DNA of 64,000 bases from Escherichia coli. GTDB taxonomy: Bacteria > Pseudomonadota > Gammaproteobacteria > Enterobacterales > Enterobacteriaceae. Where the stretch lies: the NCBI RefSeq assembly GCF_044324875.1, contig NZ_CP172185.1; one strand, given 5' to 3'. A program made the position numbers and the translations under genes. Below are positions 3,907 to 34,836 of this stretch, one piece after another. The notes below the pieces were generated by a model. The model saw only the letters and a program-made list of their open reading frames with translations. It did not search any database and was not told the DNA's origin. Within the stretch, counting starts at the first letter, position 1, and the number at the start of each line of letters is the position of its first letter.

Positions 3907-3944
3907 GTGGGTGTTGTGTTTAGGGCCGGGGAGAGTCGGGCTAA

Positions 3945-4160
3945 GACTACGAAAGCCCGCTCCCCTGCGACCACTTTTATCATAGGAGTGTGGAAGCGCT
4001 TTTCCATCAATTGCGATGACGTCTTTATCATTTGATGAATGGCAATCTCGCATCCAGTTAATAAAGCATTCGTGAAATTATACTGAACGGATACAAGACA
4101 TAACTCTAATTATGGTGCCGTGAACAGGATTACCATTTTCAAAATTACGATATTATTTGC
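3945..4160 (-). pseudogene. Internally deleted remnant of an ISAs1-family (H-repeat) transposase gene
   Basis: About 200 nt align at roughly 80 percent identity with 6143-6345 of the intact transposase gene, preceded by a sequence resembling that gene's 3' end (gactacgaaagcccgctcccc versus attacgaaagcccgctcccc at 5379). No intact reading frame. Confidence 0.6.
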
Positions 4161-4177
4161 AGTAATTATGTTATTAA

Positions 4178-4690
4178 TCATTGTGATATTTCCATCTCTG
4201 TGATTAATACCGGATAAGCATTTAATTGCAGAGTTTGCACGAAATTATCGCAGATAACTGGCAATAACAATAACCCATCAGCCCGCTGCTGTAATACCTC
4301 CATTCGTTCTACTGATTCAACATTAACAACCAAACCAAGGGCATTTAGCGATTTAAGGATCTCCAGATGTTCACTCATCCAGCGCAGAGAAAAAGGATCA
4401 TCACCAATTATAAAAACAGGCCCCCAGCCGGTTAATAACTGGCGTTTCATTACGGAGCCAGGATGAAGTCGAGTACATATTACAGGAAATACCCCCTGTT
4501 GCGATGGTTCCGATGATGTGGATAATTCAGAAATATTTTCCATTGTTAGTGAAGAATTAACATCCATTAATAATGGTGAAACAACCTCACTTTCCTTGCT
4601 AGTAATGGCTGCACTAATCTGAAAGGAAAATAACAATATTATTACGTACAAACTTATTTTTAACATAACACATTCAATCCGTTTATTCAT
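4178..4690 (-). CDS. Hypothetical exported protein (N-terminal hydrophobic signal-like segment), AT-rich orphan
   Basis: 170-aa ORF with MLKISLYVIILLFSFQISA near the N-terminus; low-GC codon usage; no recognisable family. Start uncertain (4690 or 4666). Confidence 0.45.
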   Translation of the reverse strand: MNKRIECVMLKISLYVIILLFSFQISAAITSKESEVVSPLLMDVNSSLTMENISELSTSSEPSQQGVFPVICTRLHPGSVMKRQLLTGWGPVFIIGDDPFSLRWMSEHLEILKSLNALGLVVNVESVERMEVLQQRADGLLLLPVICDNFVQTLQLNAYPVLITEMEISQ

Positions 4691-4756
4691 GTTATAGAAT
4701 AATAATGCTATAAATCATCATTAATGTTCAATTATTTAATCACACAATTTAAAAAA

Positions 4757-5260
4757 TCATCGACCAATGTGAATTGGCAATGTACCACTCAAGTTAAAAT
4801 CACTGAATATTTTATCAATTTCTCTTGCAGTTTCTATATATTTAACCTCTTTCGTACTTGCATTATAAATAGCCCAAGCCTCGGGATGGGATGTTCCACC
4901 AAACCTTACAAAAAAACTTGATTTCATATTATTATATAAATTAACATCAGGAAAAGGATCTTCTCCAAAATTAGTAGTATTAAATAATGAAAGTTCGTAT
5001 CGCTTAGAAAATTCTGTTGGTAGGATAGCTTCACTGCCATCAATAGCATTCATCCAGAGTTTGTTACCATTATATTCCAACAATAATCTCTGTTTTGCAT
5101 GTGTCTTATCTCGTTCTTTAACGACAGCGAATACCTTTTTAACAACTTGCTGTGCGGATGGTCCTATTGTATTACCAAAAGCTGGCAACCCGATTTTGCC
5201 ATAAACACTCTCCTGAATGAAATAAATATCCGTTTTATCGGCCTCGACAATATCTACCAT
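4757..5260 (-). CDS. Hypothetical protein, AT-rich orphan
   Basis: 167-aa ORF on the same strand as, and immediately upstream of, the 170-aa ORF; no recognisable motif. Confidence 0.45.
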   Translation of the reverse strand: MVDIVEADKTDIYFIQESVYGKIGLPAFGNTIGPSAQQVVKKVFAVVKERDKTHAKQRLLLEYNGNKLWMNAIDGSEAILPTEFSKRYELSLFNTTNFGEDPFPDVNLYNNMKSSFFVRFGGTSHPEAWAIYNASTKEVKYIETAREIDKIFSDFNLSGTLPIHIGR

Positions 5261-5339
5261 TTATCCCTCCAAACAAGACCTGACTCCAGGACAAGAGCAT
5301 AGTGTGTAGTAAACACTTCATGCTCTTGCCCTGACCATT

Positions 5340-6560
5340 GAAATAACAACTTTCGTTTGTTTACTGTACCAGGGCAAGATTACGAAAGCCCGCTCCCCGC
5401 AAGGACTGACGCCAGGTAGTTTCTGTCCATGGCTGCTTTTCGCATCTTACGTCTTAACCCTGCCTTGAATACCTTATCATTCGTCAAAATATTAATAGCA
5501 ATGTGCCGTATCCCTGAAAATAATTCTGCTGCGTTTCCTCTTCTTATTTTGCAGTCGTCTTCATTCATTACCACGTCCAGACGCCAGTGCAGCTTATTCT
5601 CCACGTGCCAGTGGTTTCGGATTGCTGTGGCGAACTTCTCTGCGGTTAAATCAGCAGAACTGATATAATATCTGACCGTCATTTCGGGCTCTTTCTTTTG
5701 TTCTGCTATTATTGACCGAAAGGAGACTGCCACGCATAATTTCTTCAGACCTTTCCATTCAAACGTGAAATCAATAAGTTCATCAGGGACATCGCAAACA
5801 ATATGAAGACGGATTTCTTCTCTGCCGTGACTCTTTTCACTCATTGCGTAACTGTCATGCTCTGGATTATTTAATTCTTTCAGTGGGAATTTTTCCTCAA
5901 AGGCTTTATTAAGCCGCCCCTGATTTCCTTTTACAGCGAATAAATAATCACCGCCCTGTTTTTGTATCTTCTCTGCAATATCTTTCTGGCAACCCATCGC
6001 ATCAGTTGTGATGATTTTTCCTTTAATATCCAGCATGTTAAGAAGTTCTGGGATAGCTGTAATCTCATTGGATTTCTCATCCGTCTTGATCTGTCCGATG
6101 ACCAGGCTGTGCATTGTTGAGAACGCACTAATGACATGAATCGCTCCCCTGCGGCGACTCTTGTCATAAGAGTGCCGGAGCGTTTTTCCATCAATTGCGA
6201 TGACGTCTTTATCATCTGAAGTATGGCAGTCTCGCATCCAGTTAATAAAGCACTCGTGAAATTTTGCAGGACTGATACAGGATACAACTCTGGCGATGGT
6301 ATCGTGAACAGGAATACCATTTTCAAAATCACCGTATTGTTTTAAAAAATCGAGATGTGTTTCCCCAAAATCCTCTATATCTTCCCAACCTTCTGCACCC
6401 GAAATAACGGCACAAATAGTCAACAGTAGAATATCCGACAATTTATGTTCCACTTTCCAGGCTTGTCTGTAATCGGGAATAACAGAAATATGCTCCATCA
6501 ATTTTTAAGTTCCATTTTGTTCCCCTTAATTATGTAAGGAGTATTTGATCATGTATAAGT
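5340..6560 (-). mobile_element. ISAs1-family (H-repeat) insertion element; ends approximate
   Basis: Contains the intact transposase gene; element termini were not resolved, so boundaries are approximate. Confidence 0.5.
5380..6498 (-). CDS. ISAs1-family transposase (Rhs-associated H-repeat protein)
   Basis: About 372 aa from ATG 6498 (track begins at TTG 6501); sequence [46 protein letters not shown] ... [25 protein letters not shown] is characteristic of H-repeat / ISAs1 transposases. Confidence 0.85.
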
Positions 6561-6725
6561 AATAAAAAACAGCCTCAGGTAATGAGGAATATCTCAAATT
6601 TTAAACATAAAATGCGAATTATTTAGTACAAAAAAGCAGCGTTACGTGATCTTTCCCTGTGCCGGTACCTTTGTCGTTTAATCTGGCAGCTAAAGGCATA
6701 TTGTTTTCCTGTCTGGAATATCAGC

Positions 6726-33307: not shown

Positions 33308-33384
33308 GTTACCTGGGAGTCTTTCATCTGCATTATTGTTATATTTTAAAAAGGCAATTTAACATTATAGGATAAAATGACAAA

Positions 33385-33435
33385 GTACGGTTAATCACGA
33401 ATAAAAATTCTTAATTAACCGTACCTGCTGTTTTA
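33385..33435 (+). terminator. Putative terminator of the T6SS structural operon
   Basis: Inverted repeat gtacggttaat / attaaccgtac followed by ctgctgtttt in the AT-rich spacer after hcp. Confidence 0.4.
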
Positions 33436-33646
33436 TAGATGTATGTGATGTATTTTTGACAGTTCAACCGAAAACTCGAACTACAGCTTATATGTTGAGA
33501 GGACAACAAATAACTTGAGGAAAATTTTTACTACTCCTAAAAAATATATGTAAAATTAATTAGCAGACTTGTTCCATAGTGTAAAACAGAAAAGAAAAAT
33601 GCTCTTTCCTGCTAAGTACCACTAAAACGTCTGGTATAAAACCTCA

Positions 33647-34432
33647 CTACTGATATCGATTCACCAGGTCTTTAACCACTGCTGCGTACGTTTTCTGCTT
33701 AAGTTGTGAAATCTGCTGTTCTGCCACATCAAGGCTGTCAGAATTTTTATTCCCTATCTGCGGAAAAATCAGTTTCGATTCATAATTCACAGGCGACCAG
33801 GTAGCCCACTCACCTGTAGCCACATCCACCAGCGTGAATCGAACCAAATAACGCAGTGACATCGTGTCAGTCAATTTTTGATTTTTATAATCTGTCCAAA
33901 CTATTGATTTTAATCCAGAGTCATATTTTCCTGTCTGCAACGTATCCTGGAAAACAATAATTGCTTTCTGATGGCCTTTTGCTGCAACAAAACGCAATGC
34001 CTGCATCCAGTTCATATTTTCGGCATCTACAATATCTAGGCTTTCATCTTTGTTTTTGTCTTTATTACAGGTTAAAGTTTTTTGCCTGTCAGGAATGCCA
34101 GAAAATGTGGCAACTGTATAATATTTTCTCATCTCCTCCTGCATAATGGTTTCCGGTGCGCGACTACCAGACTGAACAAGTATTACAGGAGAACTGAGGG
34201 GCACACGAAACTCATCTCCTTCAAGCGCAGCTTGAATATCCTCCTCGGATACAGCCAGAGTGGTTTCATTACCGAATAAATCTTTGTCTGTCAGTTGCGG
34301 GGGAGTGTTTTTATTAATATTACTTTGTGTAACTTGAGCTTTTTTCTTTTTTTCATCAATAGGAGATTCAGAGGCACATCCTGCAAGCAGCGAGAATAAC
34401 ACACATATGCAACAAACCTTTTTTGAATTCAT
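33647..34432 (-). CDS. yafT: Lipoprotein YafT
   Basis: 261-aa ORF with lipoprotein signal (LLAGCASE); adjacent to aspV as yafT is in E. coli K-12. Confidence 0.7.
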
Positions 34433-34699
34433 AATCGGACACTCCCTCGCCTGTCATGATGATTAGAATATTTAGTACTGATAACGGACTCTAATTATAT
34501 ACCCCACTTAAATAATAACAAACAAAATCAATATGAAATATACATTCATTTAATCAATATAAAATCATTCTCAGAAAATATATTTAAGCTGAATGGTTCG
34601 ATATCATTATTGAATTTTAATAAATGAGACAACAAGCGAGAATCACGCACTTACGCCAGAGTAAAATCATTGAACAGAGAAATAGCGGGATTTAAATGC

Positions 34700-34731
34700 A
34701 AAAAAAACCGCAAAATTAAAAATCTTGCGGT
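34700..34731 (-). terminator. Terminator downstream of aspV
   Basis: On the minus strand, hairpin accgcaa...ttgcggt followed by a run of T (A-run 34700-34706 on plus). Confidence 0.55.
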
Positions 34732-34759
34732 TCTCTGAACTCATTTTCATGAGTGAATT

Positions 34760-34836
34760 TGGCGGAACGGACGGGACTCGAACCCGCGACCCCCTGCGTG
34801 ACAGGCAGGTATTCTAACCGACTGAACTACCGCTCC
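34760..34836 (-). tRNA. aspV: tRNA-Asp (GUC)
   Basis: 77-nt exact reverse complement of E. coli tRNA-Asp (GGAGCGGTAGTTCAGTCGGTTAGAATACC...TCCGCCA) with encoded CCA. Confidence 0.97.

Follow-up and report, generated by a model that had tools for sequence, protein, structure and literature searches.

We analysed a window of 64,000 nucleotides of the Escherichia coli chromosome (contig NZ_CP172185.1), whose orientation is the reverse of the K-12 order. Our subject is the interval of about 30 kb between yafV and the tRNA-Asp gene aspV, which holds a type VI secretion system (T6SS) cluster. Gene names were carried over from the PGAP annotation of a genome that is 99.9% identical to the window (L001). 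The landmarks and main gene blocks are the following.

3136-3906, + strand: yafV (2-oxoglutaramate amidase), the left backbone gene (L001 annotation, empty-site comparison)
6811-13017, - strand: variable cargo arm with 320/336-aa and 523-aa proteins, DUF4123 adaptor, vgrG and hcp
13720-33307, + strand: T6SS core operon tssB-C-E-F-G-tagH-tssJ-K-L-H-vasI-tssA-tssM-vasL-hcp (annotation)
33647-34432, - strand: yafT, a lipoprotein gene that is absent from empty-site genomes
34760-34836, - strand: aspV, tRNA-Asp(GTC), intact (ARAGORN, Rfam)
34969-35700, - strand: dnaQ, the aspV-side backbone gene (L001 annotation)
42984-43060, - strand: aspU, a tRNA-Asp copy identical to aspV, at the end of an rrn operon (ARAGORN, Rfam)

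In L001, the left end carries fadE, ivy, yafV, an ISAs1 pseudogene fragment, a gene annotated as 'integrating conjugative element protein', a hypothetical gene and the ISEc1 transposase gene, followed by two hypothetical genes, the DUF4123 gene, vgrG (flagged as truncated) and hcp. After this hcp arm, the core operon runs on the opposite strand in the order listed above, and yafT, aspV and dnaQ follow. The full tssA-M set is present together with hcp and vgrG in the subtype i1 order tssBC-EFG-tagH-JKL-H-vasI-A-M-vasL (PGAP; Pfam Hcp, VgrG and DUF4123), the subtype label being that of PMC5422975. As a sequence-only reading of this stretch had claimed, yafV on one side and aspV and dnaQ on the other flank the complete cluster (ARAGORN, Rfam, L001 annotation). 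The base composition of the interval differs from that of its flanks, as in a genomic island: G+C content is 51-60%, mostly 55-60%, in the T6SS core, 34-45% in the arm with the cargo genes and insertion sequences (ISs) and about 40% in the yafT region, versus about 50-56% in the flanks. The interval is also adjacent to a tRNA gene, with island-specific DNA beginning 7 nt past the aspV CCA.

Limits of the replaced DNA

Alignment with genomes that lack the island, as proposed with the sequence-only reading, revealed an empty site and gave exact limits for the variable DNA. The E. coli sample consisted of 5,426 complete genomes, a handful of which were inspected gene by gene, and the counts given here are of BLAST coverage classes. 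Other species were sampled by a DnaQ scan with one genome per species, which returned 80 loci, and the sequences 3' of aspV were compared across 88 loci. In strain 1162invT2, yafV and aspV are separated by 98 bp with nothing else between them, and this arrangement is found at a coverage of at least 80% in 757 of the 5,426 E. coli genomes. The order dnaQ-aspV-yafV-fadE with a gap of 45-254 bp occurs in about 20 species from at least eight genera, empty sites being found in Citrobacter, Klebsiella, Enterobacter, Kluyvera, Trabulsiella, Siccibacter, Pseudescherichia and Pseudocitrobacter. Directly after aspV, nearly all species loci carry the terminator CTATTCAGAAAGCCTGAATCAGCAATGATTCAGGCTTTCGTCGTTTT, as do the E. 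coli empty sites, where it starts with the Escherichia-specific ATATTCAG. A tight gap and a common terminator over so many genera argue that the empty site is the ancestral state, and that it persists in E. coli.

Compared with the empty site, the window has 30,859 bp (3895-34753) in place of about 103 bp. Homology to the empty-site genomes breaks inside yafV, at 3893/3894, and beyond the trailer ATTCA, at 34754. What was exchanged extends from the last yafV codons to 7 nt past the tRNA CCA, with loss of the native aspV terminator. The native 98-bp spacer is missing from the window, and the island does not split it or the final codons of yafV but takes their place. YafV ends in ...ADEFRLW* in the window and in K-12, and in ...ADEFTFR* in the empty allele, the difference lying in the last three codons and the stop (3895-3906). 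The occupied allele is a replacement and not a simple or clean insertion. A possible donor of the yafV 3' end was rejected: the window's TTTAGGTTGTGGTGAG resembles TTTAGGTTGGGGTGAG of Pseudocitrobacter vendiensis, but the likeness covers 16 nt only, has no similarity beyond and is too short.

The variable DNA is hereby fixed at 3895-34753, with yafT inside it. The range of 3907-34836 proposed in the sequence-only reading needs correction at both ends, as it takes in the tRNA and misses the altered yafV codons, and its assignment of yafT to the conserved flank fails against the empty-site genomes, none of which has the gene between yafV and aspV. A tblastn search over the 80 species loci found yafT only in Escherichia and in the one Pseudocitrobacter genome with the island, and the gene is part of the island, not of the backbone. 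When the 5,426 E. coli genomes were searched with yafT-aspV-dnaQ, yafT adjoined aspV in 3,988, and in many others homology ended 6 nt past the tRNA. The identity of yafT is 88% between E. coli alleles and 76% to E. albertii, versus 98% and 94% for dnaQ. The gene and its upstream region (33647-34759) diverge far more than their neighbours, and YafT has no Pfam or NCBIfam family match.

The junctions and the search for integration signatures

At its aspV end, the island has two features.

34754-34759, - strand: right junction, 6-7 nt after the CCA (A-ATTCA) that match the native trailer (ATATTCA / CTATTCA); island DNA starts at 34753
34702-34736, - strand: island-borne terminator-like hairpin that replaces the native aspV terminator (88-locus comparison)

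The window thus reads (A/CT)ATTCA, then CTCATGAAAATGAG and then the hairpin. Among the 88 loci, this type of junction is confined to E. coli (K-12, O157 and the window), E. whittamii and E. albertii. No other genus has it, which argues that it predates the split of these species. The T6SS genes of E. whittamii are 88-94% identical to those of the window and its backbone is 93-97% identical, values that are compatible with co-descent of its island and backbone. The sequence-only reading had described an old, stabilised island. Old age agrees with the shared aspV-side junction and this similar divergence, but a site as polymorphic as this one cannot be called stabilised.

At the yafV end, a cluster of IS elements and small genes adjoins the junction.

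3895-3935, unstranded: left junction, about 40 bp of non-IS DNA between the IS cluster and yafV, common to K-12, O157 and the window
3936-4152, - strand: ISAs1-family (H-repeat) remnant, a transposase middle fragment fused to the conserved 3' end GGGGAGCGGGCTTTCGTAG, with a degenerate inverted repeat
4178-4666, - strand: gene of the PFL_4695/DUF2859 'integrating conjugative element' family (Pfam PF11072, E=2e-28; TIGR03765, E=2e-35)
4757-5260, - strand: hypothetical 167-aa protein with no family match (annotation, Pfam/NCBIfam)
5287-5333, unstranded: 47-bp pair of ISEc26-like terminal inverted repeats (CAGGGCAAGAGCATGAAG ... ATGCTCTTGTCCTG), by comparison with the O157 ISEc26 ends
5370-6659, - strand: intact ISEc1 (H-repeat) of about 1,290 bp with inverted repeats CAGGGAAAGATCACG / CAGGGCAAGATTACG

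The remnant at 3936-4152 was recognised from a PGAP pseudogene (3958-4152) and from a DDE_Tnp_1_assoc match in a six-frame scan. The ISEc1 transposase has the DDE_Tnp_1 (PF01609) and DDE_Tnp_1_assoc (PF13808) domains that place it in the ISAs1 family, and the element aligns over 1,292 bp to an O157 copy. No target-site duplication surrounds ISEc1; its flanks GGTACCGGCA and GTACAGTAAA differ, which is consistent with later rearrangement. The 47-bp pair sits 36 bp from the ISEc1 end and looks like the remnant of an internally deleted ISAs1-family element. The PFL_4695-family gene is solitary, lying between IS remnants beside the T6SS, and its product has a signal-peptide-like N-terminus. In 541 genomes the left-end module with this gene is complete and goes together with the window's T6SS allele, whose carriers are about equally numerous.

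The yafV-side junction is common to K-12, O157, UTI89, CFT073 and the window, and an ISAs1-family end abuts the stretch of about 40 bp in all occupied alleles examined. The orientation of this end at the junction is the same in K-12, O157 and the window, whereas the elements themselves differ: the window and K-12 have an H-repeat/ISEc1 end, and O157 has a full ISEc26 with about 76 extra bp. The K-12 gene yafF consists of the last 280 bp of the same H-repeat, against the same junction. UTI89 and enteroaggregative E. coli (EAEC) 042 have the same left-end module as the window, and that of 042 is 99.9% identical. IS ends in the same orientation at a shared junction in several alleles argue that IS occupancy is long-standing and not simply recent. 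The H-repeat element that the sequence-only reading had named as the only recent signature of mobility is therefore present, but it is neither alone, given the 'integrating conjugative element' family gene and the further IS remnants, nor wholly recent, given the long-standing IS end.

No integrase gene is annotated in the interval in L001, and no integrase domain was found in any accessory open reading frame (ORF) with Pfam. Six-frame translations of the intergenic regions (3880-4200, 6470-6840, 12250-12530, 12990-13750, 33280-33680 and 34400-34790, the short gaps 4640-4790 and 5230-5410 lying outside the scan) contained no integrase at E<=1, the sole match at this threshold being the ISAs1 remnant. 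With the same two gaps outside the scan, annotation, Pfam and six-frame translation together gave no tyrosine or serine recombinase and no pseudogene of one. In the 80 species loci, the large ORFs (at least 250 aa) no more than 3 kb away from aspV included no evident integrase, as judged by clustering and inspection by eye and not by profile search.

The search for an attachment (att) repeat was likewise negative. In the window, the tRNA-Asp 3' 25-mer (up to 3 mismatches), 15-mer (up to 2 mismatches) and 16-, 20-, 24- and 30-mers occur only within aspV and aspU. When the 3' half of the tRNA was aligned locally to the island, the best score did not exceed that of shuffled controls, and no direct repeat of at least 9 nt is common to both island ends. 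As a positive control, the 15-nt repeat CCGTCCGTTCCGCCA, which resembles an attR site, was found at aspU in three other loci, each time as a solitary copy of the tRNA-Asp 3' end.

L009 (Escherichia sp.), 1757-1771: CCGTCCGTTCCGCCA
L024 (Citrobacter sp.), 1505-1519: CCGTCCGTTCCGCCA
L050 (Lelliottia sp.), 1493-1507: CCGTCCGTTCCGCCA

Each copy lies between island DNA and the native aspU flank, at a position where no tRNA gene is called, and the copies look like the attR sites of elements integrated at aspU. Because they were found by the same search, a comparable att repeat in the window would have shown up. The control repeats stop exactly at the CCA and the native flank follows immediately, whereas the window keeps 7 native nt. 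One candidate att remnant, CGCAGGGGAGCGGGCTTTCGTAGTC (about 3946-3970), which resembles tRNA-Asp nt 38-61, was rejected. It excludes the tRNA 3' end; its score was reached by 5 of 200 shuffles in a 321-bp search and by 28 of 200 over 3 kb; and it belongs to the ISAs1 transposase gene, whose conserved 3' end it forms, with a second copy at 5380-5398.

The absence of an integrase and of a tRNA-Asp 3' repeat near yafV, both asserted in the sequence-only reading, thus withstood searches at several sensitivities, including one for partial repeats by k-mers with mismatches and local alignment. The same holds for the lack of self-mobility, there being neither integrase nor att repeat; an att-like repeat together with an integrase remnant was looked for and not detected. 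The other tRNA-Asp copy, aspU, had correctly been described as identical and free of insertions: it is uninterrupted, is followed by its conserved terminator and dkgB, and is collinear with other genomes.

Exchange, transfer and loss between the junctions

The window's T6SS core is found at a coverage of at least 80% in 577 of the 5,426 E. coli genomes, with 96-100% identity, and about 2,400 further E. coli genomes match it at 60-90% identity. The core is at a single site in nearly every carrier, with 2,977 places in 2,973 E. coli genomes. It takes the form of two mosaic alleles of about 75% identity. Identity to the window is only 67-80% for the allele of the about 2,400 genomes and likewise for that of enterohaemorrhagic E. 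coli (EHEC). The O157 island has the same ends as the window, and its identity to the window (24990-32810, versus L005 5604-13768) is a mosaic, with 73-76% for tssA, tssM and vasL but 90-94% for vasI and the tssH 3' end. Such mosaic identity in adjacent T6SS genes argues for recombination breakpoints within the cluster. The cargo arm is swapped as well, with DUF2169-PAAR in UTI89 and Rhs-SEL1 in O157. The same junction pair around such deeply diverged contents argues that the junctions were made once, and that content was exchanged inside them.

A second type of T6SS is found at the aspV-yafV site in E. coli LHM10-1 (L006 1-19916) and in the Escherichia genomes L008 and L009, as well as in L020; its carriers are some E. 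coli, an Escherichia sp. and a Citrobacter amalonaticus. Its layout is tssA-G-F-E-tagJ-tagK, clpV, tssBC, a STY0301-family gene, hcp, tssJKL and tssM, and it follows the native terminator. A third type of sequence after aspV, present in many genera, starts with CTATTC[AG] followed by a GGCCATG...CATGGCC hairpin.

L003 (CFT073), 8631-8700: CTATTC[AG]-hairpin type
L013 (Salmonella arizonae), 7696-7760: CTATTC[AG]-hairpin type
L016, L020, L029, L036, L067, L068, L072, L075, L079 and L083: CTATTC[AG]-hairpin type

The gene downstream of this sequence encodes a DUF4942 protein in CFT073 and is a 283-aa ORF in S. arizonae. These sequences may mark an island family of wide distribution that has a junction of its own at this trailer.

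The T6SS core also extends beyond Escherichia. In the Pseudocitrobacter metagenome contig CAJYVI010000048.1 (L055 10835-19452), it is 92-97% (about 95%) identical to the window, whereas the backbone is 72-84% (about 78%) and yafT 77% identical; the native aspV terminator is retained. The high identity has a sharp boundary exactly at the hcp stop codon, and this core is also not identical to the UTI89 or E. whittamii alleles. These identities document a move of the secretion-system core from one genus to another at one and the same site.

Loss of the cluster explains three genes of K-12. The window has no counterpart of ykfM and yafU; strain OkiPb01679 (L088 20137-21540) has them as the two genes between yafT and hcp, and its yafU is full-length (304 aa). 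This ykfM-yafU segment of OkiPb01679 is present in 2,969 genomes. K-12 (L002 2758-3879) has a yafU remnant and, about 14 bp beyond it, the final 280 bp of an H-repeat. Read against OkiPb01679, the K-12 sequence is the scar of a deletion from inside yafU to inside the H-repeat, and ykfM, yafU and yafF are the traces of a lost T6SS. In CFT073, a 100-kb pathogenicity island follows aspV, and a truncated PFL_4695 gene and an ISAs1 remnant are all that is kept beside yafV, as a scar of the left end. The far end of this island was examined for an att repeat near yafT, and both yafT and the T6SS are gone in this strain.

Origin of the occupied allele

Neither the cluster itself nor the lack of obvious repeats around islands of this kind is new to the literature. 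It has been reported at the tRNA-Asp gene aspV between yafT and a yafV homologue (PMC2808357, PMC4232414, PMC5363993, PMC5422975), and PMC5422975 calls the subtype-i1 cluster the most variable region, of which many strains have small remnants that are not functional. The third T6SS of EAEC 042 (Ec042-0210-0226) has the same site and gene order, with 99.7% nucleotide identity over window positions 3001-28000; PMC2808357 notes that evidence of expression is lacking for this copy. The same E. coli cluster appears under other names as 'T6SS2' or GI-16 of avian pathogenic E. coli IMT5155, as 'T6SS/1 subtype i1' of ECC-1470 and as the EHEC OI-7 cluster, and the EHEC aspV cluster is its allelic partner (PMC5363993). 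Between the 042-type aspV clusters and the window there is no essential difference, although the vgrG cargo arm varies (DUF4123 and the 523-aa protein in the window). The present comparison refines this picture with exact limits, an ancestral allele that is empty, the scar in K-12 and the identity across genera.

The Salmonella pathogenicity islands SPI-6 and SPI-20 are likewise T6SS islands beside aspV; they lie at the same tRNA, SPI-20 without obvious direct repeats (PMC2907695). Their secretion systems are far from that of the window at the amino acid level, with 25-26% identity for TssF and 41-42% for TssH in E. coli/Citrobacter examples, and 32% for TssB and 44% for TssC in S. arizonae. 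In the E. coli examples, the SPI-type island comes after the native aspV terminator and not, as in the window, 7 nt past the tRNA. With the classical tRNA islands of P4-type integrases, the window shares adjacency to a tRNA 3' end, atypical composition and presence or absence among strains. Unlike them, it has no integrase and no direct repeat, its junction is outside the tRNA, and it replaces about 103 bp. This calls for caution in naming 'pathogenicity islands' by tRNA adjacency alone. E. coli integration hotspots, as reportedly described by Touchon and colleagues in 2009, hold variable content between conserved core genes. The aspV-yafV interval is an instance of this concept, with many unrelated contents between the same core genes in E. 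coli and in the family.

We consider it probable that the interval is the known subtype-i1 T6SS cluster in the form of a non-mobile replacement allele of the aspV-yafV hotspot, shaped by vertical descent, exchange through homologous recombination and IS-associated decay. In the ancestral layout, a short spacer separates aspV and its terminator from the 3' end of yafV, a convergent gene. About 103 bp of this spacer would have been replaced, in an ancestor within Escherichia, by yafT, the T6SS, the vgrG cargo arm and about 40 bp that gave yafV its new C-terminus. Without excision or integration machinery, the block would then have been passed on vertically, swapped whole or in part by homologous recombination anchored in tRNA-Asp/dnaQ, yafV/fadE and conserved T6SS genes, and eroded by deletions ending in IS elements. 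The absence of integrase and att would accordingly reflect an old replacement allele at a hotspot, and a recently decayed mobile element fits less well. Site-specific recombination may have been responsible for the first event, the integrase and the distal repeat having been lost later.

Several observations weigh against this account. Homologous recombination is inferred from patterns, and the divergence of the flanks is only mildly raised (fadE 95-97% identical versus 98-99% on the dnaQ side), which is suggestive only. The aspV-side junction all but coincides with the 3' end of the tRNA, and the CTATTC trailer is also where a second island family (CFT073, S. arizonae and others) breaks, a pattern that an ancient site-specific event would leave. 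The Pseudocitrobacter evidence is one metagenome-assembled contig without its yafV-side end, and the gene-by-gene view of E. coli comes from only a handful of genomes, beside counts from coverage classes.

More broadly, and with somewhat less than even confidence, we propose that the aspV-yafV gap is an integrase-free docking site across the Enterobacteriaceae. T6SS lineages, at least three of them and unrelated to one another, would have been captured there, as would many other cargoes, with T6SS blocks crossing genera by recombination anchored on tRNA-Asp and T6SS genes, and with the empty allele coexisting since before the split of E. coli, E. whittamii and E. albertii.

An origin as a degenerate integrase island is unlikely, although part of the junction evidence is what it would lead one to expect. 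The yafT-T6SS block would have entered at the aspV 3' end, and a deletion, possibly ISAs1-associated, would have removed the integrase and the distal att along with the native spacer and the final codons of yafV. In favour of this, the junction lies 7 nt beyond the CCA and the island brings its own terminator; the unrelated island family of CFT073 and S. arizonae breaks at the same trailer; native DNA has been lost at the yafV side, where several IS remnants lie without target duplications; and tRNA-Asp genes are integrase targets, as the attR repeats at aspU witness. However, no integrase fragment or att remnant appeared at any sensitivity tried, and the control attR ends exactly at the CCA while 7 native nt persist here. 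The Pseudocitrobacter yafT-T6SS block lies after an intact native terminator and not at the tRNA end, and the large ORFs near aspV in the 80 loci were not integrase-like by eye, albeit not profile-tested. Moreover, such an origin accounts at most for the first event and not for the present diversity.

Movement of the island, or of its yafV-proximal part, as a composite ISAs1 (H-repeat) transposon is very improbable. Several ISAs1-family copies do lie in the same orientation at the yafV end (5370-6659, 5287-5333 and 3936-4152), and O157 has two full copies there. However, no ISAs1 copy is present at the aspV end, and no target-site duplications surround ISEc1 or the block. The elements are at one end only, differ by allele (ISEc1 in the window, ISEc26 in O157) and are separated from yafV by about 40 bp of non-IS DNA, and the 2,977 places in 2,973 genomes leave the T6SS core at a single place in nearly all carriers. 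That the interval is what is left of an integrative and conjugative element, as hinted by the TIGR03765/PF11072 match at 4178-4666, is scarcely credible, as this is a lone gene between IS remnants and outside the T6SS operons, and neither an integrase nor a relaxase, coupling protein, type IV secretion or mating-pair-formation gene was found in the interval by annotation, Pfam or six-frame scan.

The cargo arm of the window has further features of its own. The 523-aa and 320/336-aa proteins, which have no family match in Pfam or NCBIfam, may form an effector-immunity pair. The vgrG gene is annotated as C-terminally truncated. The cargo lies downstream of vgrG at 6811-10323 on the - strand, and the DUF4123 adaptor is weakly similar to the Tle1 chaperone Tla1.

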